Under the pieces are notes generated by a model. That model had not been told where the DNA came from. It made no database searches and saw nothing but the letters and a program-made list of their open reading frames with translations. A stretch of DNA of 64,000 nt from Mycobacterium phage prophiT36-1, in the sequence record OQ417966.1, one strand, 5' to 3'. Positions 23,130 to 64,000 of this stretch are shown one piece after another (position 1 is the stretch's first letter; each line of letters starts with the position of its first letter). The position numbers and the translations under genes are program-made.

Positions 23130-23134
23130 GTGTG

Positions 23135-24602: not shown

Positions 24603-24832
24603 TGTCGGCCAAGTCCTTCGCGCAGCTCGTCAAGTATCCGCTGTTCTACATCGCGCTGGCCGGGGTCTCGTTCCGGATTGGTTGGTGTGCAGCCCATTAC
24701 GTCAGTGACCGCATGGACAACTTTGATCCAGATATCGGTAGGGGTTATGTTCTGTTGAGACGTTTGTCTTGGAGGTATGTCGATGAGCGATCGAGCGTAT
24801 CGGGTTGTTTACGGAGCTTACGCTGGGCTTGA
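24602..24832 (+). CDS. Small membrane protein ORF, 76 aa, that crosses the left boundary of the duplicated block. The first 46 codons are phage-side and the last 30 codons are inside the repeat.
   Basis: ATGA overlap with the stop of the 23904-24602 gene. One TM-like segment LFYIALAGVSFRIGW. The ORF continues across the 24740/24741 junction and into the first recombinase gene in another frame, so its C-terminus is probably an insertion artefact. Confidence 0.25.
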   Translation: MSAKSFAQLVKYPLFYIALAGVSFRIGWCAAHYVSDRMDNFDPDIGRGYVLLRRLSWRYVDERSSVSGCLRSLRWA

Positions 24833-26171
24833 CGCAGCCGAGGTGCAGTTTCCCGGTGTGACCCGATGCCTTCCATCTGTGGAGCAGCAGTTCGGGGATG
24901 GGTTTCCTGTGCTTGTTGATGCCGATGGTTTGCCGGTGGAGGAATCGTTGGCGTTTCTAGTATCGCGGGTAGGGGCATCGACCTCAACATTGGCGCAGTA
25001 CGCACGCGCTTTGATGGGGTTTGTCGAATTCCTGGGCTACCGGGGGGACGCCCGGCTTTTAGATGCGGCGCCCCGTGACTTGACGGCGTACCGGTTGTAC
25101 CGAACGAGGACGGGGGAATCTCCTGTCTCGGAATACTCGTTCCGGGTGGAAGCCTCGGCACTGCGACAGTTCTATGCGTGGGCAGTTGAGACTGGCCTCC
25201 TGGAGCGCTCTCCTGTCAAGCAGTTGTCACGCAATGGCTGGGACAACCTTTCTACCAACAGAATGCGTCATTCTAAGATTCGTCATGTAGATAAGTTTCT
25301 GTACGAAGCACTGCTGCGAGCGGCTGCTCAGGGCAGCGTGGATGCGGGCGTTCGGAGTGCTTCGCTACGGAATGTGGCTGCAATCAAGACATTTGCAACG
25401 ACTGGGCTTCGCCTTGGTGAGCTTGCGAGCCTTCTGACCTTCGATATTGATCATGCTGTCAGATTGCGCCGGGCGCTATCTGTGGAGATGGAGTCGATCA
25501 CAAAGTACCGAGTCAACCGCAATGCGTTGATTCCGTTCTATGCCACAGACGCGATCCGGCGGTATCGAAAACTTGAGCGCCCTAACGTGGTGGTTCGGCA
25601 TCAGCGCGCGTTGGGCAAACGTCTGGACAGTCTTTTTGTGATCAGCGATTTCAATGAATCCACTCGCCGTGTCTCCGGCCGGTGGCGAGGTCGACGGCAC
25701 CAGTATCTGCTGCATTTGGTGCCTGTTGAGCTGCGGTTGAAGGCTGTTTCAGTTAATTCAAATGGCAGCGTGGAGCCGCTGTGTTTGTTCTTGAGCGATA
25801 GCCGAGGGCAAGGGATGACGAGGTCTGGGTGGGAAGGAGTGTTCTCCGAGGTCAGTGATCAGATGATGCGCCAGGATCCGACGGATGGGCGGATCCGGAA
25901 GGTCACCCCGCATGATCTGCGGCATACGTTCGCTATCAATTATTTGAGGGCGGCCCATGGGGAACGGGCCAAAGTGCTCCAGGAGACACCGTTCAAGGAT
26001 GGGCCGCCGCTGCGTGATCCGTTGATCGATCTTCAAGAGCTGTTGGGACATGCGACCGCAGCACAAACGATGCGTTACTTGAGGTATGTCGAGGACATCG
26101 ACCGACTCATTGCGTCGGCTGTTCCCGGCCAGGGTGATGCGGGAGGGGGCGAGCATGCCCCGCAGAAATGA
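24777..26171 (+). CDS. Tyrosine recombinase, first member of the trio, 464 aa.
   Basis: SD ggagg 6 nt upstream. C-terminal catalytic boxes: LRLGELASLLTFDID (Arg I), PHDLRHTFAINYL (H-x-x-R), LLGHATAAQTMRYLRY (His and Tyr nucleophile). Confidence 0.75.
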   Translation: MSMSDRAYRVVYGAYAGLDAAEVQFPGVTRCLPSVEQQFGDGFPVLVDADGLPVEESLAFLVSRVGASTSTLAQYARALMGFVEFLGYRGDARLLDAAPRDLTAYRLYRTRTGESPVSEYSFRVEASALRQFYAWAVETGLLERSPVKQLSRNGWDNLSTNRMRHSKIRHVDKFLYEALLRAAAQGSVDAGVRSASLRNVAAIKTFATTGLRLGELASLLTFDIDHAVRLRRALSVEMESITKYRVNRNALIPFYATDAIRRYRKLERPNVVVRHQRALGKRLDSLFVISDFNESTRRVSGRWRGRRHQYLLHLVPVELRLKAVSVNSNGSVEPLCLFLSDSRGQGMTRSGWEGVFSEVSDQMMRQDPTDGRIRKVTPHDLRHTFAINYLRAAHGERAKVLQETPFKDGPPLRDPLIDLQELLGHATAAQTMRYLRYVEDIDRLIASAVPGQGDAGGGEHAPQK

Positions 26172-28059
26172 ACGCAAGGACCTCGACCGTGAGGGTGTTG
26201 ACGTTGCGCGAGGCGCCGCCGAATCTCGGCCAGCTGCGGTGGGAGTTCGCAGGCTCGCTCAACCGGGCAGGCCCGGCATGCAGGGGACCGCACAGATAGA
26301 TCCCAGCTCATACCAATGCCGCCGTCTGGCGGCCCAGCTGGCCGACCAGTGGGTTGAGATGGCGGCTGGGCGTTCGCGCTCGGTGATCGCCGTTCACCGT
26401 CAGGCGCTTGATAATTTCCTGAAATATGTTGATAAGTTGCATGATTCAGATGTGAGCCTGGATCATGATCCCGCGGTAGTAATGGCGGTGTTTGATGCAT
26501 GGGCCAAGGATCTGATTGCACTGTATGACGAAAATTCGATCATGCCGTACCGGATGTCGAACATCGTCCAGACACAGATGGCTGGTGCTGTTGTCGATGG
26601 GGTGATCACCGACGAGGTGTTGGCAGCATATGCGCGTGGGCCCGCGGTAGTCCCGAAACCGCGAGCACAACCGCTCGACGAGTTCAGTAAAGACGAACTC
26701 AAGCGCATGGTGCTGGCTGCGCGCGCACATATACGAGCAGCTCGAAAGATCAGGGAATGGGCCACGAAAACTATCCGTGCGTACGAATCTGGGAAATTGA
26801 CCCACGCGGATCAACGCTGTCTGGGCCACATGCTGCAGATGGCTACCCGAGGCGAGCGCATCGCCATACAACAGCCGTGGGATGCACATCCGGAGTCGCT
26901 GCGCGATCTCTTCCCCGACGAGGCCTGGTCGCTTTATCAGGCAACAGGCCTGAACGAGACGAAGAATTCAGTTGCCTTGTCCTGCTACCGCGCGACCCTC
27001 GCCCGGCCAATCGACCTGGTTCCTTATCGGGTATTGCTTATGGCAGGCACAGGCGTTGCAGTGGAAGAGATCTCGGCATTGACTGTGTCAGATATCGAAT
27101 GGCTCGAAGATGGCGTCAGAGTGCAGATGACCAAATCGCGAGCCCGGCGGTCAAAAGGACGGTACTTCCCAGGATCCGCTGAGCGCGGTGGCTGGGATGT
27201 TCCCGCGCTTTTGCAGTCGCTGCTGGATTTCACTGAACCGGTCCGCGCGATCGCAGGTGCACAGTTCCAGGACTGCCTGTGGCTATCGTTCAAGACAAAA
27301 AGACAGTCCCACAGTGAATCTGGTTGCGCCCCGGCTCCCGCAGACTTCGGAACCGCCAACTTGGCATCCTGGATCGATTCGGTCAAGACAGTCCACGACA
27401 TGGGCGATATTTCCACCCCACATGACATGCGGCGGATACGTAAGACAAAGGTCGCCCAGCGTGCAATTGATCTGCGTGGCGCAATGGCCGACATCGCTGG
27501 CGATGACCACACCAGCAGAGTCTTCTTCCAGCATTACGGACAGACAACATCGCTGAAAGTGTATTCAGGATCGGTAATTTCGGGCTTCCAAACCTCACTC
27601 GCTGAGGCAGTAAAGACAGGCTTCACTGCCTTCCTGGACAGACGTGCTGCGGTACCGGCGTCGATCTTGACCGAGGCGCTGCCCATCGAGCCCGCTCAGG
27701 CACACAGTCTGCGCTCCGGTGCTCACGACATGGGAGTTGTCGACTGCCAGAACCCGTTTAACTCGCCCTTTACCAAACAAGGCAAGTTATGTGGGTCCGC
27801 GCCCTTATCATGTCTGATGTGCGAGAACGCGGTTGTCTTCACCGACCATCTCCCCAACATCGTGGCGCTTATACAAGCAATGGACAACGCGAAGCGGTCA
27901 CTGGCACCCGATGACTGGATTGCCACCTGGGGGCGGCAATACGCTGCGGCGCAGGCATTGATGTCATCGGTGCCCGAACGAGCTCGCGCCGCCGCGGCGC
28001 GCAAGGCCGCTGCCGCGGTAACAGATCTGCCGGCCTGGTTGGGGCCGGGTAACCAGTGA
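26155..28059 (+). CDS. Tyrosine recombinase, second member of the trio, about 634 aa from the ATG at 26155; the ORF is open from 26086.
   Basis: Strong SD gggaggggg 5 nt upstream of ATG 26155, overlapping the end of gene A by 17 nt. Boxes LTVSDIEWL (Arg I), MTKSRARRSKGRYF (Lys), TPHDMRRIRKT (H-x-x-R), VFFQHYGQT (Tyr). Confidence 0.7.
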   Translation: MPRRNERKDLDREGVDVARGAAESRPAAVGVRRLAQPGRPGMQGTAQIDPSSYQCRRLAAQLADQWVEMAAGRSRSVIAVHRQALDNFLKYVDKLHDSDVSLDHDPAVVMAVFDAWAKDLIALYDENSIMPYRMSNIVQTQMAGAVVDGVITDEVLAAYARGPAVVPKPRAQPLDEFSKDELKRMVLAARAHIRAARKIREWATKTIRAYESGKLTHADQRCLGHMLQMATRGERIAIQQPWDAHPESLRDLFPDEAWSLYQATGLNETKNSVALSCYRATLARPIDLVPYRVLLMAGTGVAVEEISALTVSDIEWLEDGVRVQMTKSRARRSKGRYFPGSAERGGWDVPALLQSLLDFTEPVRAIAGAQFQDCLWLSFKTKRQSHSESGCAPAPADFGTANLASWIDSVKTVHDMGDISTPHDMRRIRKTKVAQRAIDLRGAMADIAGDDHTSRVFFQHYGQTTSLKVYSGSVISGFQTSLAEAVKTGFTAFLDRRAAVPASILTEALPIEPAQAHSLRSGAHDMGVVDCQNPFNSPFTKQGKLCGSAPLSCLMCENAVVFTDHLPNIVALIQAMDNAKRSLAPDDWIATWGRQYAAAQALMSSVPERARAAAARKAAAAVTDLPAWLGPGNQ

Positions 28060-30542
28060 AGACAGCACAGCTCGGTTCCCCAGGGCCAGTCGCGGCACCG
28101 GTTTCGTCCGACATCTTCGCCGACACCGAAGATGTATTCCTGTCCCGCCCGGACAGGATCGCTGGCGCCCCCGCATGCCTGTTTAGCGAGCAGGTATGGG
28201 ATGCGACGGGTGTGCTGCCTCGGCGCGCTAACATCGGCCGCCATCAATTGCGCATAATCTTTCCGCAGCATCCGGCGTGGTCGCTGCGGTCTCGTGAGAT
28301 TGCGATGACCTTGCTTAACAGCACCGACCCACGGTTGCTCGCACGATCGGTCTCCTTCGGCAGCCGTACGTTCTCCCTGGCGCATGTGCGATCGCGCTGC
28401 GAGACATACAAAACCGTGGCGGCGTGGCAGACAGCTCAAGGCTTACCTGACGACATTTCGGCCTGGGGCGCCCGCGACTGGGTAGCGATGGTCGAAGCCG
28501 AAATCGCCAGGGGCGTCAAAAACGGGACCGTGCGCAATCTCATCTGCGCTATCCGCGACCTTGTCTTCCTTGGGCCCATCTTGACTGGCGGCGGCATCGC
28601 ATCAGACCCATGGAACGGCAAGGCAACGAAACTCATCGCCAAAGGCGCCGTGGCAGGACGAACTGAAGTAATCGCCCCGGCACGTTGGATACCGCTGATA
28701 GGTGCGTGCTGGACATACATCGACACCTTCGCCGAAGACATCCTGAGTCTGCGTGTGAGCCATCAGTGTGACCTGCGCCCCGGCATGCCGGAATGGAGGC
28801 GCCGCTCGGAAGTAAGCGATGACGAGCTGCTCACCGCATACCTGGAGTCCTCCGGTGCCGTTATTCCCGCTAAGACTCGTGACGGTGGCCCGGACCCGAG
28901 CTGGTGGCGCCTATCCAAATTGGTAACCGCCGACCGGTCTTCGGCAATCTTCAAAGAAGACAGGGCAGCGGGGCGCCGCCGCAGAGAGATGGTGTATCAG
29001 GCGCTCGCCAACAACGTGGCCCGTTATGTAGCCCTCACTGCCAGTGAATTCGAAAATCTTTTGGCACAAGGGATTTCCAAGAAACTCGCGGGCAGCGATG
29101 CCGAGACCATAGTACGGATCCAGGGCGCCGACGAGATGCTCGATGCGTGGATTGACGCTGCCAGCAACCGAGTCGCAGTCACGTCCACAGAACTATGCAG
29201 CTCGCCGGGAAAGATCGCTGAAGACGACATCAATTGGGCATTGATGGAACGGATCGTGTTCCGTTCAGAAGGCGTGACTGGCCTGCTCGGGAAGGGCTGG
29301 GCAACCTCTGTCCGCCGCAGGCGCAAACTACTTAAACTCGCCCGCTCAGGCCGAGTTTTCGCATCCGCCAGTGGTGTCGGTGTGATGGGCGTACCGCGCG
29401 ACTGCACTGGCTTCACCCTAGTCGGCGCACCAGGCAGGCAGATCCCTTGGCGGGAATCAATGTCGGACTATGAGGCGCGGTGCGAACTGCGCGCCTTGCG
29501 GGCATCCTGCTATGTCTTCATCGCCGCGATAACAATGATGCGCGACAGTGAGATTCAAGATATGAAGCGAGGCTGTATACGTACCGATTACGGCGTCGCT
29601 TCTGTGAAATCACACCTTTACAAGGGGCGTTCGGGCAAGACGGTCGCACACTGGTGGATCATCGATGAAGTAGCCACAGCAATCAGAGTGCTGGAACGAC
29701 TCAGCTGTCATCCAGAGTATCTGTTCGCACGATTCGTCGACGGAGAACTCGAGAATCCTGAACCCGGTATCAGGTCAGGACTCGAGATTGCGTTTCTGCT
29801 CGATCATTTGGCGGCCACCGGCGCCCGAAGCGGGATCGCACCGGTGCCCGAGGGGCCCGTGATTTCCGCGCGAGCTCTGCGCCGTACCACTGCATCCATC
29901 AGCCGCGAACTGGGAGGCAACGAGCTTGCGGTAAGTCATCAACTCAAACACGCCATCAACTACGGCTACTCGAACGTTACCAGCGCCTATATGGCACCAG
30001 ACCCGGCATGGGCAGACCTGCTCAACACCAACAGGTCCGAGGACAACCTTGAGCACATGGTGACCGTCGTGCAGCAGTCCGCGCGCACCAGCGCCTCCTT
30101 GGCCGGTCGCGGCGGTGAGCGGCTGACCCAACAGATTGCCCAAGCGGTCGAACAGAGCGCAGGCCCTGGATACCCCGGTTCGGTGCTCTCCGATGAGGAG
30201 CTAGCCATCCTGCTGAGAAAAATCGCGCCGCAGATCCGTTTCGGACCTGCCAACGCGTGTCTGTACGACGAAGAGAACGCGCTATGTCGGCGCGATGCCA
30301 CCACCGAAATCCAGGGGCCGCTTCTGGGACTGTGTCAACCGTCGCGCTGCGCAAACTCGGTGATCGGTACCGAACACATGCCTGTGTGGGTCACCGAGTT
30401 GCAGACATTGCAGAAGACCATCGCCAGCCCCCGCGTGAGTCCGCCTCGACGACAGGCACTTTCAGAACGAATCACCGACGTACAGCACGTACTGAGCCAG
30501 CTCCAAACACGACCGCAAGCGGGCGACCATGGGCAGCCGTGA
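28056..30542 (+). CDS. Tyrosine recombinase-like protein, third member of the trio, 828 aa.
   Basis: GTGA start/stop overlap with gene B. C-terminal segment TMMRDSE (Arg I), KSHLYKGRSGKTV (Lys), ARALRRTTAS (box II Arg), VSHQLKHAINYGYS (His and Tyr). The large N-terminal extension is of unknown function. Confidence 0.6.
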   Translation: MKTAQLGSPGPVAAPVSSDIFADTEDVFLSRPDRIAGAPACLFSEQVWDATGVLPRRANIGRHQLRIIFPQHPAWSLRSREIAMTLLNSTDPRLLARSVSFGSRTFSLAHVRSRCETYKTVAAWQTAQGLPDDISAWGARDWVAMVEAEIARGVKNGTVRNLICAIRDLVFLGPILTGGGIASDPWNGKATKLIAKGAVAGRTEVIAPARWIPLIGACWTYIDTFAEDILSLRVSHQCDLRPGMPEWRRRSEVSDDELLTAYLESSGAVIPAKTRDGGPDPSWWRLSKLVTADRSSAIFKEDRAAGRRRREMVYQALANNVARYVALTASEFENLLAQGISKKLAGSDAETIVRIQGADEMLDAWIDAASNRVAVTSTELCSSPGKIAEDDINWALMERIVFRSEGVTGLLGKGWATSVRRRRKLLKLARSGRVFASASGVGVMGVPRDCTGFTLVGAPGRQIPWRESMSDYEARCELRALRASCYVFIAAITMMRDSEIQDMKRGCIRTDYGVASVKSHLYKGRSGKTVAHWWIIDEVATAIRVLERLSCHPEYLFARFVDGELENPEPGIRSGLEIAFLLDHLAATGARSGIAPVPEGPVISARALRRTTASISRELGGNELAVSHQLKHAINYGYSNVTSAYMAPDPAWADLLNTNRSEDNLEHMVTVVQQSARTSASLAGRGGERLTQQIAQAVEQSAGPGYPGSVLSDEELAILLRKIAPQIRFGPANACLYDEENALCRRDATTEIQGPLLGLCQPSRCANSVIGTEHMPVWVTELQTLQKTIASPRVSPPRRQALSERITDVQHVLSQLQTRPQAGDHGQP

Positions 30543-30927
30543 GGAAATCCGTGCCGCGATGGAACGCCTCCTAAACGGCGACGCCCAGCACACCGACGGA
30601 CGCCTAACCAAAACCAACCTTGCGGTAGAAGCCGGCGTGGGTCGGGCGACCCTCTACCGCCAGCACGACCTGATGGCCGAATGGGCGCGCCGCGTCACCG
30701 AATCAGACATCGCCCCACCCGCCGCGTCTGCCGCGGCCACGATCGCACACCTGACCCGACAGCTGGCCGACGAACGCTCCCGCCGCCGCGAATCCGACCG
30801 CATCGCCAACGGCCTGGCCTTCGTGGTAGCCGAGCTCTACCGCGCGCTAGAGGCTCGGACTCCCCCAAATTCTTCACGCGGCACGATCATCCCGATAAAC
30901 GCCAAAACGCGAAGGCGCGCAGACTAG
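30529..30927 (+). CDS. Small HTH protein, 132 aa, TetR-like, translationally coupled to the recombinase trio.
   Basis: 14-nt overlap with the end of gene C. N-terminal KTNLAVEAGVGRATLYRQH matches the TetR-type HTH signature (AG-V-x-x-x-T-L-Y). Confidence 0.5.
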   Translation: MGSREEIRAAMERLLNGDAQHTDGRLTKTNLAVEAGVGRATLYRQHDLMAEWARRVTESDIAPPAASAAATIAHLTRQLADERSRRRESDRIANGLAFVVAELYRALEARTPPNSSRGTIIPINAKTRRRAD

Positions 30928-30988
30928 CCTGAGCCCATTTCACATACGAGCGAATGAGTTCATTGCTGATCGAAGCAGTACGGGATTC

Positions 30989-33900
30989 GTGCGTGGGAGC
31001 GGTGCCCGCCATGAATGGACAGCGCCGGCATCTGATCGGGACCGTTCGAGCGCGACTTACGTGGGGAGAGGTTACGTGGCCGACAGCCAGGCACTTCGGA
31101 AAGTTCGGTATGCAGACAAGTTCCGGGGCTATCAGGGCCAGGCTATTGCTATGGCCCGGAAGTATCGGCGCAGCTTCCACGACGAGGACGGCGCGCAGGG
31201 GCTTGATGCCGCATTGGTTTACCACCCCACGGGTACGGGCAAGACAGCCGTCATTGCCGGTCTAACGCACGCGGCACACGAAATCGGCAATGTCCTGGTG
31301 CTGACCACACGCGAAGTCATACGTGATCAACTGGTGCGCGAGCTCAGCGGTGGCCTCTTCATTGACGAGAACAAGTTCGCGCTGCCCATGCGCCACAAAC
31401 TTTCTAAGGTCTGCTTCGCGGTGGCCGAGTCCCGCCAATTACTCGGCACAGCATTAGCGTTGCATGCGGCGACGCGAAAACGCATCCCCGACCAGGTGGT
31501 CCGGGAGTTCAGTCAGCGGCAGTTCGAGCGGCTTGCACCCGAGCCCGACATCGACATCGTGAGCCACTTGCATGAACAGAACTCTGTTCTCATTCTCACC
31601 GTCCAAATGCTGGCCCGCTTGCACCGAGGCCGCACCGGGCAGTCACCGATATACGACGTCTTGCGTCAACACGTAGACCTGGTCGTCTTCGACGAAGGAC
31701 ACTACGAACCTGCACCGCGCTACAGCGAGGCAGTGCGGGATCTAGGGCGCCCTACTGTGCTGTTGACCGCTACCCCTTTCCGTAACGACCTGAAAGCTTT
31801 TCGCATCACACCCGAGCATGTCGACATTTATCGATTCACCCAGGCGGTGCAGCAGCAGCACATCAGAGAAGTCCAGATCGTGCAGCGCACACCGACACGT
31901 GACCCGGACAAGTTCTGCGCCGATGTTCTCGATTTCTGCACATCGGTGTGGGGACCCGATCCAGGGCAGTGGACCCGCCGGATCATTATTCGCTGCGACG
32001 ATGTCGAGTGCGTAACACGCCTTGGCGAAGCATTCATAGCCCATGGCTTCAAGGACCGAGTCATCGGCATCCATGACCGCTACACCAACCCTGGGCAAGG
32101 CGACGGGCAGCCATGGCAATACCGCACAGTCCCAGCGCCGTCGGAAACCCAAGCACTAGTATGGATTCACCAGCATAAACTGCTAGAGGGCGTCGATGAT
32201 CATCGCTTCCAGATTCTGGCTTTCTTCAACCCACCGACCAATGTGCGCGCCATTGTCCAACAAATCGGCCGAGTCGTAAGGACCAAGCCTGGTGGCCAAG
32301 ACGCAGGCAACGCATACGTTTTGGACTATTTCGCCGGGCGCATCGCTAGATACTGGAGTCTATATCGCGGGTATGACGCTGCAGCCACGCCCGAGGCAGT
32401 CACTATGACCGCATCACGGTTCTACCTCACGAGATTCACCGCTGCACTGCCGCAGTTCGATTACATCGACCAAAAGTTTCGCCAGCGGCTCGATCTGTTC
32501 GACCACGACCAGCAAGCCCAGCTCACTGACACCATCGCCGACGAGATCTTCTTCAAGCGCACTGTGGCACTTAGACAGATACCAAACACCCTGACGATCC
32601 AGGACGTTGTCCCGCTTCTCGAGATCGCCCTTAAGGAAGGCGATTACGAGTACCAGCGATTCGATGTGTCGAAGATATGCCCCAATACCGCTCTATTCCT
32701 GTGTTCCCGGGTGAACAATGTCGACTTTCTCAACACTTACTTCTTCCCCGAGCCGCACCTAGAAGCCCGGCTCGTGATGCTCTTCCCAGAACACGCACTG
32801 CTGGCCTCGACAAGTACAGCAGGCGCATCGGTCAAAGATGGACTAGGGATTCTTGCGCGGTACGATCCGACCCGACTTGAGCGACTCCTATTGCCGGGCA
32901 ACGATAACCGGGGACGCATCACCAGCGTTTCCTCTAAGAACATGAACCTCAGTAGCCGGGCAGTGCGCGGTCGGGTCGTCTACGCAGCATCCATGGCTGA
33001 CATCCCGGCAGCCCTCGATGAGCACGGCCATGTCGTCTCCACGGTCACCGGCTACAACGGCTCGGCTCCACAGGTCATAGACCACCTCGAATACCAAGTA
33101 AGTGTGTTGGCCGATGAACTTGCCAGATCAGGGGCGACCACCGAAGGGCCTGGCACTGGTGCAACCCTTGTGCGCCGTTACGTGGGCATCGCAAGCGGTC
33201 ACGTGACTGAGTACCTTCCACCACTGCGCATCAAGGCATTCCGTACTTGGGTGCAATCACTGGCGAACCAGATGGATGACCCCGCACGCTATGACCGAGT
33301 CTTTAGTCGCTACGCCGAGCTCGCGGTAGGCGAGACGGTCTCGGGCGCAGCCCAGAACCTGCTATTGGACTTCACCGAGCTCACCGAGCTCTACCGGCAC
33401 CGCCTCACCGGCCAATGCGTTATCAGCGATGATGTGTGCGCCGACAGATTAGGCGATCCATACGGTACACCCGAACAGCCTGCGGCACAGTTCATCATGA
33501 CGATAAATGACACCCCATACACAATAGCCGCCACCTTCAACACCTCGTCCAAGCGGTACCGCATCGAGTGCCCGGCGCTCGACTATGACTTCATCCCGAT
33601 CGATGACCGCGACGGCTCGTTGATACGTGCGATAAACCAGATGCAGGCTTTCACGGTGGTCCCAGAGGACCGAGATCGCATCTACGCGCACGGGAGCTTC
33701 TATGCGCCGTCCCTGAAGTTCGGGCCAGACCGATTTAACCCCAACGGTTTCCCTATCGGACACCTGCTTTACCCCTCGCAACAGTTCAAGTCTAAAGAGA
33801 CAGAAAAAGGGGATAAAGTCATTGGCGGCAACCGTTACCAGACACACAGCCTGTTCGGCCTGATCGACAGCTGGAAGTCAGGTTTCGATACCGCAGAACT

Positions 33901-34474: not shown

Positions 34475-34510
34475 TTGTTGCTACAGAGTATAAATCAAGA
34501 TCTGCCGGAC

Positions 34511-34768
34511 TCAGTGGTCGGCGAAGAAGTCGCCCGCTGAAGCATCCAACGCCTCCGCAATGTCGACGAGGCGTTCATACAGAAGTCCCCGGCGGCCGTG
34601 CTCGACGTCAATGAGTACGTTGCGAGTCACACCCGACGCCAACGCGAGCGCCTCTTGAGTCAGGCCCCGCGCAAGACGCAACGCGCGGATGCGGGCGCCG
34701 ACCGCCTGCCGAGTATGTTCCCAGGCAATCACACGCTCGGGATCGTTCTGCTGAGGGCGGGTAGGCAT
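34511..34768 (-). CDS. XRE-family HTH transcriptional regulator, 85 aa.
   Basis: Classic HTH_3 signature LRLARGLTQEALALASGVTRNVLIDVEHGRR. Convergent with the helicase gene and divergent from the 246-aa gene. Confidence 0.75.
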   Translation of the reverse strand: MPTRPQQNDPERVIAWEHTRQAVGARIRALRLARGLTQEALALASGVTRNVLIDVEHGRRGLLYERLVDIAEALDASAGDFFADH

Positions 34769-34778
34769 TAACCCAGTT

Positions 34779-35519: not shown

Positions 35520-35876
35520 AAGCGCAGGGCGTTTTACTGCTCCTTCACGAGCGCACGGGCAGGAGTCACAACGATTCCGTCAGCCAATCGGACCGCGAGT
35601 GGGCTACGCCACGTAGAGCGAAGATCATTTACACAGATTGGGCATCTAAGTCTTTGCCCTGCGATGAAATGCTCGTTGTTTCGGACGACGCGCACCCATG
35701 ACGGAAGCTGCCGACAGGATGCCTACCCTTGGCCGAACGAAACATTGAGGCAGTCCTGCAAGCGCAGCGAGGACGGTCGGCGGGCCTCCAGTGTGCGGGC
35801 AGGACATCACGGTGATCTTGCGGGCTGTTGGGCTGGCCCGCTCTGCCTCGACGGCCCGTAAGGGCACGTAATTCGT

Positions 35877-45705: not shown

Positions 45706-45755
45706 ATAGCAGACCGGAATTACGGCTGCTACCGATTATATTCATTCGAGGGGAT

Positions 45756-53310: not shown

Positions 53311-53695
53311 GGAAATCCGTGCCGCGATGGAACGCCTCCTAAACGGCGACGCCCAGCACACCGACGGACGCCTAACCAAAACCAACCTTGCGGTAGAAGC
53401 CGGCGTGGGTCGGGCGACCCTCTACCGCCAGCACGACCTGATGGCCGAATGGGCGCGCCGCGTCACCGAATCAGACATCGCCCCACCCGCCGCGTCTGCC
53501 GCGGCCACGATCGCACACCTGACCCGACAGCTGGCCGACGAACGCTCCCGCCGCCGCGAATCCGACCGCATCGCCAACGGCCTGGCCTTCGTGGTAGCCG
53601 AGCTCTACCGCGCGCTAGAGGCTCGGACTCCCCCAAATTCTTCACGCGGCACGATCATCCCGATAAACGCCAAAACGCGAAGGCGCGCAGACTAG
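53297..53695 (+). CDS. TetR-like small HTH protein (copy 2).
   Basis: Translation identical to 30529-30927. Confidence 0.5.
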   Translation: MGSREEIRAAMERLLNGDAQHTDGRLTKTNLAVEAGVGRATLYRQHDLMAEWARRVTESDIAPPAASAAATIAHLTRQLADERSRRRESDRIANGLAFVVAELYRALEARTPPNSSRGTIIPINAKTRRRAD

Positions 53696-53756
53696 CCTGA
53701 GCCCATTTCACATACGAGCGAATGAGTTCATTGCTGATCGAAGCAGTACGGGATTC

Positions 53757-56700: not shown

Positions 56701-57242
56701 GCTATGTCCCTGAATCGCTCTCGTTTTCACCCACTGCGCTCATCGTGGACGACATGGGTTGCGAATGCGCCGATTTTATTATTGCCGACACGCTCGGGCG
56801 GCGGGTTGTGCTGATTCATGGCAAGGCATCCGAGACGTGGCGCCCGTATTCGGCCTCAGCTCTGCAGGAGATCTGTGCGCAGGCTCAAAAGAACACAGCG
56901 CTGTTCTCCTCGCGTGAGCCCCGCATGCCGCCAAACATCACCTTGTGGGACAAGGCACACAACTTCAACAACCTGTCGGTAGCTAAACGAATCCGGAAGC
57001 CGAACAGAGATACGGCGGAGAGGATTTGGCACGACCAACTGGCGCCGCTGTTAGCCAACCCACTCACTTCGCGCGAGATCTGGCTGGTGCTTGGCAACAT
57101 GCTGTCGGCCTCAGAGATCATCGCGCAACTAAAGACTGACCGGCCTGCCGCCGAAGTCCTACAGCTAACGCAACTACTGCACACCACAATGGAAGCCGCA
57201 CGCGGCGTAGCAGCAAATCTGCGAATCTTCTGTTCGCCATAG
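53757..57242 (+). CDS. SF2 helicase with putative C-terminal nuclease region (copy 2).
   Basis: Translation identical to 30989-34474. Confidence 0.65.
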   Translation: MRGSGARHEWTAPASDRDRSSATYVGRGYVADSQALRKVRYADKFRGYQGQAIAMARKYRRSFHDEDGAQGLDAALVYHPTGTGKTAVIAGLTHAAHEIGNVLVLTTREVIRDQLVRELSGGLFIDENKFALPMRHKLSKVCFAVAESRQLLGTALALHAATRKRIPDQVVREFSQRQFERLAPEPDIDIVSHLHEQNSVLILTVQMLARLHRGRTGQSPIYDVLRQHVDLVVFDEGHYEPAPRYSEAVRDLGRPTVLLTATPFRNDLKAFRITPEHVDIYRFTQAVQQQHIREVQIVQRTPTRDPDKFCADVLDFCTSVWGPDPGQWTRRIIIRCDDVECVTRLGEAFIAHGFKDRVIGIHDRYTNPGQGDGQPWQYRTVPAPSETQALVWIHQHKLLEGVDDHRFQILAFFNPPTNVRAIVQQIGRVVRTKPGGQDAGNAYVLDYFAGRIARYWSLYRGYDAAATPEAVTMTASRFYLTRFTAALPQFDYIDQKFRQRLDLFDHDQQAQLTDTIADEIFFKRTVALRQIPNTLTIQDVVPLLEIALKEGDYEYQRFDVSKICPNTALFLCSRVNNVDFLNTYFFPEPHLEARLVMLFPEHALLASTSTAGASVKDGLGILARYDPTRLERLLLPGNDNRGRITSVSSKNMNLSSRAVRGRVVYAASMADIPAALDEHGHVVSTVTGYNGSAPQVIDHLEYQVSVLADELARSGATTEGPGTGATLVRRYVGIASGHVTEYLPPLRIKAFRTWVQSLANQMDDPARYDRVFSRYAELAVGETVSGAAQNLLLDFTELTELYRHRLTGQCVISDDVCADRLGDPYGTPEQPAAQFIMTINDTPYTIAATFNTSSKRYRIECPALDYDFIPIDDRDGSLIRAINQMQAFTVVPEDRDRIYAHGSFYAPSLKFGPDRFNPNGFPIGHLLYPSQQFKSKETEKGDKVIGGNRYQTHSLFGLIDSWKSGFDTAELDLDPHWVRRSGYVPESLSFSPTALIVDDMGCECADFIIADTLGRRVVLIHGKASETWRPYSASALQEICAQAQKNTALFSSREPRMPPNITLWDKAHNFNNLSVAKRIRKPNRDTAERIWHDQLAPLLANPLTSREIWLVLGNMLSASEIIAQLKTDRPAAEVLQLTQLLHTTMEAARGVAANLRIFCSP

Positions 57243-57278
57243 TTGTTGCTACAGAGTATAAATCAAGATCTGCCGGAC

Positions 57279-57536
57279 TCAGTGGTCGGCGAAGAAGTCG
57301 CCCGCTGAAGCATCCAACGCCTCCGCAATGTCGACGAGGCGTTCATACAGAAGTCCCCGGCGGCCGTGCTCGACGTCAATGAGTACGTTGCGAGTCACAC
57401 CCGACGCCAACGCGAGCGCCTCTTGAGTCAGGCCCCGCGCAAGACGCAACGCGCGGATGCGGGCGCCGACCGCCTGCCGAGTATGTTCCCAGGCAATCAC
57501 ACGCTCGGGATCGTTCTGCTGAGGGCGGGTAGGCAT
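57279..57536 (-). CDS. XRE-family HTH regulator (copy 2).
   Basis: Translation identical to 34511-34768. Confidence 0.75.
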   Translation of the reverse strand: MPTRPQQNDPERVIAWEHTRQAVGARIRALRLARGLTQEALALASGVTRNVLIDVEHGRRGLLYERLVDIAEALDASAGDFFADH

Positions 57537-57546
57537 TAACCCAGTT

Positions 57547-58287
57547 ATGGAGCGCCCGTACCAAAAGTCTGCCCTACTAGTAGTACATTGCTGTGTTGTG
57601 TTTGAATTCGATCCCGAAGATGCGTCTGTAGAGACTGTTTCGGCACTGGCCCTGGATGCGATGGACGAGCTGCGCAGGAAGTTGATCGAATGCCTTCTGG
57701 TGTTGCAAACGTTGTCTGATGAAGCTGATCTGAATTTCGTCGATCTAATTAGCGATCTGCAGGCCGTTCACCGAGGTACTCAAGAGGCGTATCGAGCAGC
57801 TAGTCTGGTGCATCAGGGTGCTCAGCTAGACGGCCGATGGGGTAACAGTTTGTCCAAGCCCAAAGCCGTTTTCGCTCGCCATAATTCAGCAGTGCGTCGC
57901 GGCGCCAAAAAGGTAATCCCGATGTCGGCACCATCTGACCTGGTGGAGCAGAGTTTGTATCACTTGCCCAAGCCCGACCGCGTTCAAGCAACCGTGGGTG
58001 ACCGGCCCCAATGCGCGGGCACCGTTCGTTCCACAGGTGAAAGCTGTGCCAGCTCCGCCATGTATCTGGGTTCGGGAGCATTTGCAGCGCACTGTTATTC
58101 GCACGCTACTCCCGCTGAACGTGAGCGGTACAGGGTCTATCACAAGGAGATTGATGCGCGACGTGCGCGCACATATGACGATTTGCGCGAGCGTCAGTGG
58201 GCGGTCGGTCGCGAGATTCTCGCTCACTGGATCTCTAGTCGCGAACATGGCATCGAGTGGCTTGAGAAAGCTATCGCTGAAGTTTAG
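57547..58287 (+). CDS. Cys/His-cluster hypothetical protein (copy 2).
   Basis: Translation identical to 34779-35519. Confidence 0.4.
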   Translation: MERPYQKSALLVVHCCVVFEFDPEDASVETVSALALDAMDELRRKLIECLLVLQTLSDEADLNFVDLISDLQAVHRGTQEAYRAASLVHQGAQLDGRWGNSLSKPKAVFARHNSAVRRGAKKVIPMSAPSDLVEQSLYHLPKPDRVQATVGDRPQCAGTVRSTGESCASSAMYLGSGAFAAHCYSHATPAERERYRVYHKEIDARRARTYDDLRERQWAVGREILAHWISSREHGIEWLEKAIAEV

Positions 58288-58644
58288 AAGCGCAGGGCGT
58301 TTTACTGCTCCTTCACGAGCGCACGGGCAGGAGTCACAACGATTCCGTCAGCCAATCGGACCGCGAGTGGGCTACGCCACGTAGAGCGAAGATCATTTAC
58401 ACAGATTGGGCATCTAAGTCTTTGCCCTGCGATGAAATGCTCGTTGTTTCGGACGACGCGCACCCATGACGGAAGCTGCCGACAGGATGCCTACCCTTGG
58501 CCGAACGAAACATTGAGGCAGTCCTGCAAGCGCAGCGAGGACGGTCGGCGGGCCTCCAGTGTGCGGGCAGGACATCACGGTGATCTTGCGGGCTGTTGGG
58601 CTGGCCCGCTCTGCCTCGACGGCCCGTAAGGGCACGTAATTCGT

Positions 58645-60417
58645 TTGCTCTTTACGGGCGGTCGCGTAGCTTTGTTTTGTGTTCCTTTCCATCCGGGGCC
58701 ATTGGCTTGCCGCTTTACGTATCTTGGACCGTTGGTGAAGCTGCGGCGCCTGACGCGGCGCGAAACAAACGAGAGCCTGCGCCGGCGATGGGCATTTTTT
58801 CAGGCGCATCTTCGCGACGAATTTGTCCACTCCGCACAAGGCGAGCAGGTACTCAAGTACGCCTTTGAGTTGCGCCGGGTTAATCGGCCAGATACTGATG
58901 TCGAACATTTCAAGGCGGTGGTCGCTGCCGAGCGTGACGTGTGCGAGGCGCGGGCACGAGCAGCTCTAGACCGGGTGAACCCGGCCAGTGTTCTGGTGCT
59001 GGGGGTGATTCTTGAGCGCGCCGGTCAATCGCGTTACCGGCAGTTCCTGGGCGCGTTTGGGATGTCGCGGCTCGTATGGTTGATCGGAGCGGCCGGCGGG
59101 GGCACTGGACCTCTCGGTGAAGGTATTCGAGAGTTCTTCGATTGTGCAGTGCCCTGGTTAGCTGTTACCGCATTGGAAAGTGAGCTGTGGTGGCAGCCCA
59201 CGGGACGTGACCCTGATGATGCGACCGTGACAGCGGTTGGTTCGCGCATGGTCAATGCGCATACCCGCCTGTGGTGGGGCTCGTTGATGGTCGCGCGCTC
59301 ACTGCTGCGGCAGGCACGCCGACCCGAGTTACCCGAAACGATCGTCCCGGAGCTGGTGCAGTATCTCGTCGCAGCCAACGGGGCCAACCTGCGCGAGCGC
59401 GCAGAATTCATTCTGCCGCCGCTGAGCACTCAGGCCCGCACATTTGCGACCGCATGTTCAGTGCGGGCCGGTCAGTACGCGGGCCGTCGGCTCGATGACC
59501 TGGTCAATACCCGCATTGACGGTGAGAGCTCGGGTGGGCAACCGTGCGAGACTTACCCGTTCATTCTCGTAGGTGAGCAGCTCGTGCCGGCCACGATCTA
59601 TGTCTTGCGCGGCAGCCTGCACGTTATGTTCGTGGACTACCTGCGTAGAACGCTCAAAGACGAAGGCTCCCAAATCTTTGAGCGCACGTGCGGGGACCTG
59701 ATCCGTGAGCTGCTGGGCACGGACGGTGAAATGCTCACCGACGTCAATATTCGGATATCCCATGCGGAACGAAAACATAAGGGCCAAACTGATTTCGCGG
59801 CACTTTGGCAATCAGTCCTGCTTATCGGGGAGGTTAAGGCTGCGTTGGAGCCGGTCTTGCCACGTAAATCTGGGGCGTCCTATGACCGTGACGTGGGTAA
59901 AGCATTCACGCAGCTCAATGAGCGATTGGCCGCCGCAGCTGCCGGAAGCTCGGTGTCGGCGGCCGGTCGGATGGTTAAGGCCGAAGAATATTCACAAGTG
60001 CGAGGACTTGGGGTGGTGATGCACGATTTCGGCGGCGAGATCTGGCGGCATAGAGCACATGGCGGGAAGTTCAAAGACTCTGCAAGACTGCCGATTATTA
60101 CGGTCCAGGACCTCGCAGTGATCGCTCACACATTGAGCGGGATGGATGAGTTTCTCCGGTACCTGGACTTCCGTCAGCAGCTCCTGGGGGCAGGTGTGCG
60201 GGCTATGGAGGAGTTCGACATTCTCGCCGGTTTCCTGGCGCGAGGCCCGGGCCCGGGTCAGCAGCTTACTCGTGCGCAGAGGCGTGCGACACGAAATGGC
60301 AAAGGGCACATCAGGCTTGCGGCCCGCGCTGTTCCCTTGTCTTTGCAGCATGTCTTCGAGCCGCCGGTGGATAAAGCTGGCTGGCGTCAGATCGTCGCCG
60401 GAATGCCCAGGGTCTGA
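58645..60417 (+). CDS. PD-(D/E)xK motif protein (copy 2).
   Basis: Translation identical to 35877-37649. Confidence 0.45.
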   Translation: MLFTGGRVALFCVPFHPGPLACRFTYLGPLVKLRRLTRRETNESLRRRWAFFQAHLRDEFVHSAQGEQVLKYAFELRRVNRPDTDVEHFKAVVAAERDVCEARARAALDRVNPASVLVLGVILERAGQSRYRQFLGAFGMSRLVWLIGAAGGGTGPLGEGIREFFDCAVPWLAVTALESELWWQPTGRDPDDATVTAVGSRMVNAHTRLWWGSLMVARSLLRQARRPELPETIVPELVQYLVAANGANLRERAEFILPPLSTQARTFATACSVRAGQYAGRRLDDLVNTRIDGESSGGQPCETYPFILVGEQLVPATIYVLRGSLHVMFVDYLRRTLKDEGSQIFERTCGDLIRELLGTDGEMLTDVNIRISHAERKHKGQTDFAALWQSVLLIGEVKAALEPVLPRKSGASYDRDVGKAFTQLNERLAAAAAGSSVSAAGRMVKAEEYSQVRGLGVVMHDFGGEIWRHRAHGGKFKDSARLPIITVQDLAVIAHTLSGMDEFLRYLDFRQQLLGAGVRAMEEFDILAGFLARGPGPGQQLTRAQRRATRNGKGHIRLAARAVPLSLQHVFEPPVDKAGWRQIVAGMPRV

Positions 60418-60787
60418 ACTCGCCGCAGGACCCGGGAACGGCCGACCTCCGCTAAGCCTGCCTGCCCAGTGCATCGGTGGGTCGGTAGTGGTTTGGGACT
60501 GTGTCTGATTGCCAGCCATTCGGATTGGGCGAGCTATGCCTGACAGTTCGCACCTGACTCTCGCTGTCAGTTGTCGCCCACATACCGCTCCAACGCTATC
60601 CAGACTGGTCCTGGCACTTCCGAAGTAGCGACGTACTGTGATCTTTCAGTTCAGAACAGTGTTTACGCGGGGGTCCTTCGCGGCAGCTCCTCGCAAAGTC
60701 GGCGGCCGGTAGATATTGTGTCGCACTGCGACAACAATCAGATTCAGATCCCACCGTCTACCTGTCGCGTCTAACTGAGGGGGTTCC

Positions 60788-62593
60788 ATGACGGCTGAGC
60801 CAGCACCGCTCGGCGAAGGCATCGCCGAGCACTTCGGGTTTGCTATTGCGGGGGTCAGAGTCGGTGATGGTGAGATGCTCGACTTGCCTGGAGCGGGGAG
60901 CGTCATAGCTGTTGTGGGGGCGAACAATGCCGGAAAGTCCACGTTCCTACGTCAATTGCAGGAGATCTTGGCGTGGCACGGACTCACCAAGGAAATGACG
61001 CCCCGCGTTGTTACGGAAATCGCGGAGCCATGGGTTGGTTCGGTCGAAGATTTCACCGCGTGGCTGATCGCTAACGCCCAGATTGACGAGCACACGGGTC
61101 TAAGGAATGTGACCCGCAACGGCACTCACCCGCAAATACCGTTGCAGAACACTGCCTCGATCCGGAACCAACCCACACCTGGCGCTGTCCTGCACTGGTT
61201 TGTCGGCAATCATCAGCCAGGCGACCGGCAACACGCCTGTTCGATGTCAGGTAGAGCTGACCCGGCAGGATTACCCCCACAGACACCCATGCAGGCCCTG
61301 TTCGCAGACATACCGAAACGCAAAAAGGTGATTGACCTCGCTGCCCGCTTGTTCGGCGTTCAACTGCACTTCGATACCGTCAGTGCGTCTATCGGCTTCC
61401 GTATCGGCAAACCCGACTTGCCGGCGCCAAACGTTAACGAGATAGACGCTCAGTATGCTCGCGCGGTTGGAAAACTGCCACCTCTGATCGAACAAGGTGA
61501 CGGCATCAAGTCAGCGCTCGGCCTCTTGATCCCTCTGATTACCAACGCGAACCCGCTGTCGATCGTGGACGAACCCGAGGCCTTCCTCCACCCACCGCAG
61601 GCAGAGCTTCTCGGCTTCGAGATAGGGAAAATTGCTCGGGACAACAGATCCCAGGTTGTCCTCGCGACTCACGACAAGAATCTTCTGCAGGGGATCGCGA
61701 GGAGTGGAGCCCCCGTATCGATTATTCACTTACAGCGAGCTGGAGACACCACGACGGCTATTCGTCTCGGGGCCGAAGATATCGAAGACCTCTGGAAAGA
61801 TGTGACCCTTCGGTATGGCAATGCGCTCGACAGCCTATTTCATCGCGCGGTCGTCATCACCGAAGGTGATCGGGATTCGCACTTTTTTCGTGCGGCGATT
61901 GATGCGGTTCATGAGGGCATACACCCGCAGCCTCCCGCACACAACCTGATGTTTCTAAGCAGCTATGGCAAGCAGAACATGGCGCACATCGTCGAACGTC
62001 TTCGAAAGCTGGGCGTACGGGTCGTCACATCTCCCGACCTCGACATTCTCAACAACGAAACGCTGCTGCGCCGGCTCGTTGTTGCCCACGGCGGCGACTG
62101 GAACTCGATCATGCAGCTTTACAAGCAGGCAACGAACGAATTCCTCGGTCCTGCAAAGCCTCCCACGATCGACGACGTACGCACAAAGATTGATGACGCC
62201 CTGAGTAAATCGACCGATGGCGTCTTGGACAGGCCTTTAGCTCAGGCGCTAGCTGTGGCCGTTGCGCTCCCAACAACAAACTGGGGCAAGCTAAAAGAGG
62301 CCGGCACCCGGGCATTTAATGCAGACAAGAAATCGGCGACTGAACTTCTGGATGCTCTGGACGCGATCGGCATCGTTGCCGTCAAGGTCGGGGAGCTGGA
62401 AAAGTTTGTAACAAACGCTAACCCGCCAAAAGGCCCCGAGTTCCTCCCTGTCGCCTTCGCTGCGGGAGCGCACATCGCGCCGGAGGCAGGGGAACATGCA
62501 AATCGGCTATTGATAGCAGCCGGAATCACGGTTCCAGAGACGCGCCCTGTTCACGATCAATGCTTGCCCGCATGCGCCCAGACCTCAGGCTGA
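60788..62593 (+). CDS. OLD-family ABC-ATPase/Toprim nuclease (copy 2).
   Basis: Translation identical to 38020-39825. Confidence 0.8.
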   Translation: MTAEPAPLGEGIAEHFGFAIAGVRVGDGEMLDLPGAGSVIAVVGANNAGKSTFLRQLQEILAWHGLTKEMTPRVVTEIAEPWVGSVEDFTAWLIANAQIDEHTGLRNVTRNGTHPQIPLQNTASIRNQPTPGAVLHWFVGNHQPGDRQHACSMSGRADPAGLPPQTPMQALFADIPKRKKVIDLAARLFGVQLHFDTVSASIGFRIGKPDLPAPNVNEIDAQYARAVGKLPPLIEQGDGIKSALGLLIPLITNANPLSIVDEPEAFLHPPQAELLGFEIGKIARDNRSQVVLATHDKNLLQGIARSGAPVSIIHLQRAGDTTTAIRLGAEDIEDLWKDVTLRYGNALDSLFHRAVVITEGDRDSHFFRAAIDAVHEGIHPQPPAHNLMFLSSYGKQNMAHIVERLRKLGVRVVTSPDLDILNNETLLRRLVVAHGGDWNSIMQLYKQATNEFLGPAKPPTIDDVRTKIDDALSKSTDGVLDRPLAQALAVAVALPTTNWGKLKEAGTRAFNADKKSATELLDALDAIGIVAVKVGELEKFVTNANPPKGPEFLPVAFAAGAHIAPEAGEHANRLLIAAGITVPETRPVHDQCLPACAQTSG

Positions 62594-63012
62594 TACGACC
62601 GCGACGCCGGCTACTGACCTTGCGGACGTGCTCAATACAAGTGCTCAGTTGCGCGCGGAGCTAATCTGCAGTTGGGTCAGGTATGTACTCGATTGTCGCT
62701 TATGGTGGTTGGCGAGTGGTATTGAATCGTGGGGGACAGGGTTATCTTTAGGCATGTACTTGTCGGTGTATATGGCTGGTGCTAACGGATTTCAGCGCTG
62801 TGAATGTTTTATTCGGCCGAGCATCTCAGCCTTCGGGGCAAGCGATCAGTTTCTCCACGGCTGCTGGTCGAACCTCGACATGGATTCGTCTGAGGCCTGC
62901 AACAGGTGGCACTAACCCGACCTCTATCCATGCGGATACTTAATCGACATCCGCGAGAGCGGCACCCTGTTCGCGCGACCCCAACTGGCGTTCCTACCCA
63001 GCTACGGGCATA

Positions 63013-63807
63013 TTGCTGCCAAATCTGTTGGTAAACACCAGTTTACGGCTTTCGCCGTATACACCAATTCTCGTGCGAAGAGACGCATCTGAAGCGCTCC
63101 CAGCCTCTCCGGTCGCAGGAAAGAAAATACTCTGGCCGATACGTGGTTCGATTATGCCCATGCATGGTTTCCCTTTGGCCCCAGGCTCTTTGGGCTACAA
63201 GCGCTGCCACCTCACCGTCGGGGGAGAGTTTCGACTGTCACAGACTGATTGTTGCGATGCCGGCCAAGACGAGTTGTTCGGCGTCCTCGACGACCGATCA
63301 GCTGTGGTGTTCATCCACCCAAACGCGCTTCCCGCTGCGCCACCTGACGGCGTACCGCCGTTCGCGGTCGACTTCCTGCTGGACACCACTCGCGCGGCCT
63401 ACCTGTTAGTGCATAACGGCATTCGTGCGCGGTTTCCGAATACCCATTTCATACTCAGCCACGGCGGGGGCTTCGTGCCTTACGCCTCCCACCGGATGGC
63501 ATTCTCGCTCGAATTGGAAACCGGTAACCCCGCTGAGGAGATGCTGGCATTGTTGTCGAGCTTCTATTTCGACACGGCCGTGACGTCCAGCCCTGCATCC
63601 TTGCCGAGCCTGCTGGCCTTCGCCGACTCCGGCCATGTCGTCTACGGATCGGATTGGCCCTTCCTACCTGCCGACGCCGCTAGGAGGTTCACCGGTAATC
63701 TGGGTCGTTACCTTGGATTAGATGATCGGGCCCGCGCCGCAATCGATCGCGGCAACGCCGAAAAGATCTGGGGAACACCGCCGCCAACCCGTGACGAGGT
63801 CGGCTAG
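63013..63807 (+). pseudogene. 5'-truncated amidohydrolase-2 fragment (copy 2).
   Basis: Translation identical to 40245-41039. Confidence 0.5.
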
Positions 63808-64000
63808 TCGGCGGGCAGGCGCTGTGGCCGACAAGGATCGGGCCAACAAGCAACCGCCAACATCAGGGCGCTCTCAGAGTATCGCGATCGCGCCATCCAC
63901 CTGTACAACGCCCAGGGTCTTGGCGCGCGTTCGTGCTGGTCGTAGCTTCCGTCGGGATGGATGAGAGGTCAGGCGCACCCCAAGCCGATCAGCACTCGAT

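Follow-up and report, generated by a model that had tools for sequence, protein, structure and literature searches.

A probable head-to-tail dimer of a 22.8-kb integrating mobile element in the Mycobacterium abscessus prophage prophiT36-1

The window considered here, the whole stretch of 64,000 nucleotides that was analysed (sequence record OQ417966.1), is part of prophiT36-1, a prophage of Mycobacterium abscessus subsp. massiliense T36. With a probability of about 0.8, two copies of one complete integrating mobile element of 22.8 kb lie inside the prophage, joined head to tail as a dimer. The tandem insertion in prophiT36-1 has already been described by Amarh et al. (2023, PLoS One 18:e0281769, PMC9934374), and the discovery value of the duplication itself is low for that reason. 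That account and the present one agree in strain lineage and prophage, in the two identical copies and in gene content (three genes of integrase type, together with genes for a helicase, an AAA ATPase and a sigma/TnsA-like protein), whereas the points added here, which were not defined there, are the exact ends and attachment (att) sites of the element, its usual chromosomal target, its family, namely an assignment to the type of the SEs (strand-biased circularizing integrative elements) outside the host range reported for them, and an internal junction that is off register.

The repeated unit and its insertion sites

Positions 24741–41232 and 47509–64000 form one unbroken identical run of 16,492 bp, with no mismatches and no N, when the window is compared with itself at an offset of 22,768; the run stops at 64,000 solely through the end of the window. 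A preliminary description, made from the sequence alone, had claimed a direct repeat at +22,768 with a sharp left boundary, and both claims were borne out, 24740 (A) against 47508 (G) being the first differing pair. The left boundary reads GGTA followed by GGGGTTATG in copy 1 and CGCGG followed by GGGGTTATG in copy 2; as a G run lies on both sides, its true position can be given only to within a few bases. An exact repeat of 16.5 kb cannot be due to chance, and the absence of mismatches between the copies is consistent with a very recent event. The features on which the argument depends, all on the + strand, are the following.

1–24744, +: late part (capsid, tail) of a Cluster MabL prophage, whose DNA hosts the insertion; 0 mismatches to prophiT48-1
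24602–24832, +: disrupted phage gene 81 (52-aa hypothetical protein), broken near its 3' end, with a 76-aa chimeric open reading frame (ORF) running into the element (translations compared)
24745–47503, +: body of element copy 1, 22,759 bp, TTATGT...ACATAA, its ends taken from the chromosomal junctions and from in-frame restoration of the target gene
47498–47518, +: inter-copy junction ACATAA-CGCGGGGGG-TTATGT, with the arms 9 bp apart (47504–47512)
47513–64000, +: body of element copy 2, cut by the window end; exact identity to copy 1

The limits of the unit come from the chromosomes of other M. abscessus strains. Contexts were obtained through look-ups of the element's proteins, which led to many M. 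abscessus chromosomes, indexed under 550–830 blocks of the collection, the 24 longest contigs being read per look-up. In all chromosome contigs read the element is single-copy and in one context, where it splits a T2SSE-family (TadA/CpaF-type) ATPase gene beside an Rv3660c-like gene and T2SSF genes. The segment 24742–47508 of the window is gapless, collinear and 99.99–100% identical to these single-copy loci (contigs L001–L006 and L008), so that the 6,276 bp between the identical runs (41233–47508) are no spacer and constitute the right-hand part of the same element. The insertion point lies in the Walker-A codons of the ATPase gene, and when the flanks are joined with one CGCGGG an uninterrupted 383-aa ATPase is restored, with its Walker A motif GGTGAGKTT encoded exactly there. 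The left chromosomal junction reads GGCACGGG-CGCGGG-TTATGTTC and the right one GTACATAA-CGCGGG-CAAGACCACG; attL is thus CACGGG-CGCGGG-TTATGT and attR is ACATAA-CGCGGG-CAAGACC, the same 6 bp flanking the element on both sides. As terminal arms, TTATGT and ACATAA form a perfect inverted repeat of 6 bp, and the longer arms GTACATAA and TTATGTTC are complementary at 7 of 8 positions. As inverted arms flank a 6-bp spacer, the joined ends would form ACATAA-CGCGGG-TTATGT, a typical tyrosine-recombinase core with a 6-bp overlap.

The search of related genomes proposed in the preliminary description thus found the block at single copy in chromosomes, and it also found an empty site in the prophage. The window matches Mycobacterium phage prophiT48-1 (OQ417964.1) at 100% over 12000–24740, and a base-by-base comparison extends this to 1–24744, which equals 32001–56744 of that record with 0 mismatches. 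ProphiT48-1 continues past the insertion point with gene 81 (the 52-aa hypothetical gene), gene 82, lysin A and lysin B, and it represents the empty site since this sister prophage runs through it without an insert, reading GATATCGGTAGGGGGAAGTACGG. The phage target can be written ATCGG-TAGGGG-GAAGTAC and has GGG-N-AAG in common with the chromosomal target. Its central 6 bp, TAGGGG (24739–24744), adjoin the left end of the element (attL'), where the outer left junction in the window is GGTAGGGG followed directly by TTATGT (GGTA-GGGG-TTATGT). The insertion is absent from all 24 contigs read with the minor tail gene of this prophage, in agreement with the statement of Amarh et al. that no other prophage has it; prophiT38-1 and prophiT48-1 are described as identical save for the insertion (PMC9934374).

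The prophiT36-1 record is one contig of 110,792 bp, and the 464-aa form of the element's integrase occurs in it under two protein accessions. The record length decomposes as 56,740 + 2 × 22,768 + 8,516, or equally as 65,259 + 2 × 22,765 + 3, from which we infer that the copies number exactly two and that the right junction has the form ACATAA, 6 nt, GAAGTAC. From the unit length and the record length, the body of copy 2 is expected to end at about 70,271 with the right junction at about 70,277, where 6 nt and then GAAGTACGGATGGTGATCAAGG are expected. Each of the two readings that the preliminary description had left side by side was right in part. A tandem duplication gave the correct geometry, as single-copy element length and record-length arithmetic both indicate (one full unit corresponds to the period of 22,768 bp, and the second copy would be expected to reach about 70,276), and missed the nature of the unit; two copies of a mobile element gave the correct nature, the unit carrying its own recombinases, and failed on the spacer of at most 6.3 kb, given that the copies abut at a junction of the joined-ends type.

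Other features of the ends and of the chromosomal target were noted in passing. A perfect 10-bp inverted pair, CGTCTCAACA and TGTTGAGACG, lies at 47461–47470 and 24753–24762 (= 47521–47530), set inward from the ends by unequal distances (33 bp on the right, 8 bp on the left) and with more GAGAC/GTCTC motifs nearby; these may be accessory sites bound by the small helix-turn-helix protein of the element or by the N-terminal domains of its recombinases. Tn3-like ends, suggested by the leading GGGG, were rejected because no inverted copy of the left terminus occurs in the window at up to 20% mismatch, and one contig (L021) that ends 461 bp past the element, considered as a possible tandem junction, proved to be normal ATPase-gene flank. 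In some strains (L015, L016, L018 and L019, at about 11147–20426) the same ATPase gene is interrupted again 390 bp downstream of the element, by a second insert that begins with TTATCTGTAACAG, resembling the TTATGTTCTGTTG end of the present element, and that carries an ApeA-HEPN gene, a helix-turn-helix (HTH) gene and an M78 peptidase, followed by a tyrosine recombinase pair (of 401 and 743 aa); it looks as if several elements of this type have the ATPase gene as their hotspot.

The inter-copy junction and the proposed origin of the dimer

The arms at the inter-copy junction are separated by the canonical 6-bp site plus GGG. A canonical circle entering a resident copy would leave 6 bp, whether it entered by the att site or by homologous recombination. 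In the chromosomal context, by contrast with the phage context discussed below, two routes would yield exactly the 9-bp junction, judging from the target sequence: a second chromosomal insertion placed three bases leftward, with GGGCGC as target core, or an aberrant circle retaining both flanking GGG triplets. The simplest account, given these routes and the published second dimer in the chromosome, is a chromosome-first dimer. The element's own recombinases would make a circular copy by which it moves, the donor site probably staying occupied; the dimer would have formed first at the chromosomal ATPase-gene site, and a dimeric circle would then have entered the phage as one unit through its single canonical joined-ends site, the internal 9-bp junction being left as a probably recombination-inert scar. 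For the chromosomal dimer of T36, candidate forms of the outer left junction are CACGGGCGCGGG or CACGGGCGC, followed by TTATGT. That T36 keeps both chromosomal and prophage copies (PMC9934374) is consistent with a copy-out mode of movement, in which a circle is produced from a single strand and no empty donor site is left.

Several points weigh against the dimer of a complete element as proposed here. The inter-copy spacer has 9 bp instead of the 6 bp of the canonical joined-ends site, which makes a recombinase route to the dimer not straightforward. The window ends at 64,000, so that the number of copies (two) and the right junction are derived from the length of the published record and from what the authors state on backbone identity; the chromosomal dimer of T36 is taken from PMC9934374. 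No circular form or other tandem junction appeared in any collection scanned. Homology to the experimentally studied SEs is distant, the fourth protein of the element matching Srap of the experimentally active pAQU1 element with an E value of 6e-4 (BLASTP) and stronger matches being reached just through intermediates. To these must be added that the methods of PMC9934374 mention just single-end 150-base Illumina reads, Newbler and Consed, and are silent on how four copies of a 22.8-kb repeat were resolved.

This last point bears on the possibility of an assembly artefact, in which prophage and chromosome would hold one copy each, and circle-junction reads together with extra depth would have been assembled as a tandem. 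Elements of this kind do produce circular copies, and no other assembly read shows the tandem or the prophage insertion. Such an artefact is nevertheless unlikely, and no observation made here is indicative of it: with its 9 bp the internal junction departs from that of a canonical circle and suggests a fixed structure, and the authors report a completed T36 genome with the same tandem at two loci, the second complete tandem copy lying elsewhere in the chromosome, between T36_00429 and T36_00464 (PMC9934374). Moreover, the left junction between phage and element falls exactly at the element terminus, in a target resembling the chromosomal one, and the precision of this join makes at least one real prophage insertion secure.

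A segmental duplication mediated by the host, by which a single insertion would have been doubled through unequal sister-chromatid exchange, end joining or slippage at G runs without the element's recombinases, seems a little less probable still. The array is formally L-S-S-R, where S is GGGG + body + CGCGG and the breakpoints share a microhomology of 2 nt (GG), and this reading has in its favour that the junction spacer is 9 bp and not 6 bp. Ku/LigD end joining is present in mycobacteria. Both breakpoints, however, lie 3–5 bp from the element termini, which would be very unlikely for a random event in a 110-kb region, and the published tandem at a second locus with different flanks would need either the same rare event twice or movement of the unit by the element's machinery. 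Two independent, successive side-by-side insertions into the prophage target can practically be set aside: although the G run of the phage target offers several overlapping registers and elements of this type re-use related targets, this predicts either that the outer left junction has fewer G or that the middle one measures 6 or 8 nt, against the observed GGTAGGGG-TTATGT and CGCGGGGGG; by comparison of the sequences, no second insertion up- or downstream of the first could reproduce both the left (4 G) and the middle (6 G) junctions, and the record length demands exactly 2 × 22,765 + 3 inserted bp.

Scans for the relevant joins elsewhere were negative. The tandem junction, the left junction, the right end and joined-ends sites with a 4–12 nt spacer gave no match in viral, genome-representative and metagenome collections, junction-specific ORFs had no exact protein match on record, and the element as such had no match in plasmid and phage collections, the phage collection apparently lacking the source record. 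In the segment 47487–47519, TTGACG occurs at the right end and TATGTT at the left end of the element, the gap between them being 18 nt with the canonical 6-bp spacer and 21 nt with the observed 9-bp spacer. By analogy with the circle junctions of insertion sequences, the 18-nt arrangement would be a sigma-70-like promoter directed into the first recombinase gene; a scan of the actual inter-copy junction found no promoter of sigma-70 type across it.

The recombination module and its relatives

The left end of the element carries four overlapping, co-oriented ORFs of 462, 640, 828 and 132 aa.

24783–26171, +: ordinary tyrosine recombinase of intA type, 462 aa (464 aa if begun at the ATG of 24777); Pfam Phage_integrase 9e-12, Phage_int_SAM_1 4e-8
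26137–28059, +: tfp-like second gene, 640 aa, recombinase fold; weak Pfam integrase match
28056–30542, +: intB-like large tyrosine recombinase, 828 aa; assigned by third-position homology and catalytic residues
30529–30927, +: srap/TnpC-like small protein, 132 aa; N-terminal helix-turn-helix and helical tail

The first protein is a standard XerC/D-like recombinase, while the second and third have just weak integrase matches and no meaningful match among the sequences of solved structures. In alignments of homologues the second protein lacks the box-I arginine; in the third, all 16 homologues keep R496, K523, R609, H632 and Y645, the close family of this protein being narrow (Mycobacterium, Dietzia, Streptomyces). 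An exhaustive search with the 132-aa protein gave 272 relatives at E <= 1e-3, and 10 of the 52 members of the family used for a profile match Pfam DUF6262, which we take to correspond to TnpC. When that 52-sequence profile was compared by hhalign with the P. aeruginosa Srap orthologue WP_009681707, a probability of 96.7% was obtained (E 4e-10, 109 columns); this protein, the fourth of the pNDTH9845 module, is the reference sequence for the srap entries in the tfp/srap table, Additional file 3, of Idola et al. (2023, PMC10214605). Four-cysteine clusters are found near the C-terminus of the second protein (C537/C552/C559/C562, encoded at 27745–27822) and of the third (C735/C744/C760/C765, at 30258–30350), their cysteines being invariant from Mycobacterium to Serratia and Mesorhizobium in both proteins, and also in Pseudomonas and pAQU1 in the second; this conservation suggests a zinc-binding domain.

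Relatives of the module were found by tblastn on plasmids of Actinobacteria, Agrobacterium, Sphingobium, Mesorhizobium, Serratia and Pseudomonas, the following having been used for comparison by protein length.

M. lentiflavum plasmid module: 433 / 608 / 837 / 131 aa
Serratia pCC119 module: 397 / 599 / 645 / 149 aa
Mesorhizobium plasmid module: 474 / 595 / 721 aa, no fourth gene annotated
P. aeruginosa pNDTH9845 module: 376 / 563 / 637 / 171 aa

The homology is position-specific, first proteins matching first ones (at about 1e-20) and likewise second, third and fourth. In BLASTP the first protein matched the first-position genes of Serratia (4e-21) and Mesorhizobium (1e-19), the second the second-position genes of Mesorhizobium (1e-20) and P. 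aeruginosa (2e-10), the third the third-position genes of Mesorhizobium (3e-29), Serratia (2e-24) and P. aeruginosa (6e-5), and the fourth the P. aeruginosa fourth protein (3e-6).

On these grounds the element is filed here as a distant, putative actinobacterial member of the SE-type group, related to the actinobacterial Tn554-related transposons, the filing resting on gene order, on the order of the catalytic residues, on Tfp/Srap homology and on the termini. SEs were found solely in Gammaproteobacteria by Idola et al. (2023, PMC10214605), who recognise their termini by retention of a split attB and by joined ends that carry inverted repeats around a spacer of 6 bp. The present element shares with them the core order intA, tfp, intB, srap at the left end, with a second protein lacking the box-I arginine and a third in which the catalytic set is kept, the homology of the second, third and fourth proteins to the P. 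aeruginosa plasmid module (distant, and partly via intermediates), the absence of conjugation genes, and, at the chromosomal site, a split attB with imperfect inverted termini and a 6-bp spacer, the internal junction of the window having 9 bp. Under the fingerprint/footprint rule of SEs and Tn554, the 6 bp of the target come to lie beside the left end and the 6 bp of the donor's left flank beside the right end (PMC10214605); TAGGGG of the phage target lies beside the left end as predicted, and the right junction is beyond the window, its length being taken from the record. The element differs from SEs in its host, an actinobacterium, in its low sequence identity, with Srap recognised at profile level only, and in forming an abutting dimer, SEs being reported at 1–2 copies per replicon (PMC10214605). 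Upstream of the first recombinase gene, a 13-nt string with the ribosome-binding site in it, TTGTCTTGGAGGT (24765–24777), is shared with the region just upstream of intA in the Vibrio element SE-6283 (in a knock-out primer, Additional file 11, PMC10214605); no conserved terminal sequences upstream of intA were seen across distant family members, and the sharing may for that reason be due to chance.

Other families were compared in the same way. The GInts, including Tn6571 (Bardaji et al. 2017, PMC5385486), share a 5' end with three integrase-like genes and one for a small DNA-binding protein, followed by cargo and a short, relatively A+T-rich end (G+C at the junction region is 50%, against about 59% for the element), and the features given for them in PMC5385486 include site-specific insertion, a circular form, a 6-nt staggered exchange and a variable attachment-site sequence. 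In GInts, however, it is the third protein (GinC) that is non-catalytic, and here the second. The four proteins gave no BLASTP match at E < 0.01 to ECs_3512-3509 of the GInt of E. coli O157 Sakai (ginC/ginD in the list of Additional file 10, PMC10214605), taken as the one GInt representative, and the small-protein profile scored 1.2% against GinD of the Sakai GInt; membership of this family in the strict sense was ruled out by homology, judged against this single E. coli representative, and by the order of catalytic and non-catalytic proteins. The Tn554-related transposons (Van Houdt et al. 2012, PMC3414803), reported also in Mycobacterium, including M. abscessus, combine an ordinary and an unusually long recombinase (611–828 aa reported; the third protein here has 828 aa) with a small TnpC-like protein, and are likewise site-specific, with no target duplication and a 6-bp footprint. 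By description they are set apart from the present element in having two recombinase genes and no tfp, against three recombinase-fold genes and a small gene here. A RIT element was rejected, since RITs consist of three catalytic recombinases of about 315–410 aa with terminal inverted repeats and no fourth gene or cargo (as given in PMC10214605), whereas the proteins here have 462, 640 and 828 aa and are accompanied by a fourth gene and 16.6 kb of cargo, with no long terminal inverted repeat. As to the arrangement itself, tandem arrays such as the tandem accretion of ICESt1 type, or prophiT36-2a/2b of the same strain, also have head-to-tail copies at a site of the joined-ends type; the difference is that here both units are the same element with 100% identity and that the internal site is off register by 3 bp.

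With a profile of the third protein, 104 loci were detected among species-representative genomes, distributed over Actinomycetota, Alphaproteobacteria and a small number of further groups, which appears to contradict the narrow SE host range of 2023, the scan being of one protein with the neighbours checked in two loci. From sequence comparison, what seem clear relatives of the module with the same gene order are present in Mycobacterium, Streptomyces, Amycolatopsis and many Alphaproteobacteria. In many assemblies of Sphingomonadales and Rhodobacterales, the relative of the third recombinase lies on a contig of just 6.1–6.6 kb (L067, L074, L080, L086, L087, L094, L101, L110 and others). In L074, the sole one with its ORFs listed, recombinase-type ORFs and one further ORF fill the contig; such contigs look like cargo-less, multi-copy versions of the element collapsed into contigs of their own.

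Cargo and biological meaning

The rest of the element is cargo, in which the following products were recognised.

30989–34474, +: large SF2 helicase (ResIII/SNF2), its C-terminal 170 aa matching the PADLOC candidate defence model PDC-S71
38020–39825, +: OLD-family ATPase-TOPRIM nuclease; Pfam AAA_21 and OLD-like_TOPRIM, PADLOC Old 3e-19
42117–43721, +: fusion of sigma-70 region 4 and a TnsA-like endonuclease domain
44118–45305, +: Ntox33 polymorphic toxin
45295–45705, +: DUF4279 putative immunity protein

Further cargo comprises an amidohydrolase and several proteins without assignment. The description of the cargo as anti-phage defence-like, made from the window at the outset, holds in part, with the OLD-family nuclease as the one clear case beside the helicase that matches PDC-S71 and the toxin–immunity pair; no complete, named multi-gene defence system was recognised in the cargo. 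In a comparison of the window with L001–L006 and L014–L021, the Ntox33 gene is called with 395 aa in the window and in a few strains, and as a 107-aa C-terminal fragment in most others, in which an antisense ORF of 149 aa is called upstream although the DNA is 99.99% identical; it seems that a single difference or a gene-calling effect decides whether Ntox33 is called intact.

A fuller interpretation, which we regard as tentative and on balance doubtful, is that this is a genuine SE-type copy-out element in an actinobacterium, whose dimer, locked by the 9-bp site, was transposed as a unit from the ATPase gene into a temperate phage. If this were true, a phage might serve a non-conjugative, defence-carrying element as a vehicle from one M. 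abscessus strain to another, unless the insertion disables the prophage. Phage therapy is aimed clinically at M. abscessus, and the element is present in hundreds of assemblies, carrying an OLD-family nuclease and other candidate defence genes; that it is able to enter a prophage between the tail and lysis genes bears on prophage viability and on phage susceptibility. The attachment sites, as defined here, allow straightforward PCR for circles and empty sites. The occurrence of the SE four-gene module beyond Gammaproteobacteria would give a poorly understood transposition system a wider host range and would link it to the actinobacterial Tn554-related elements.

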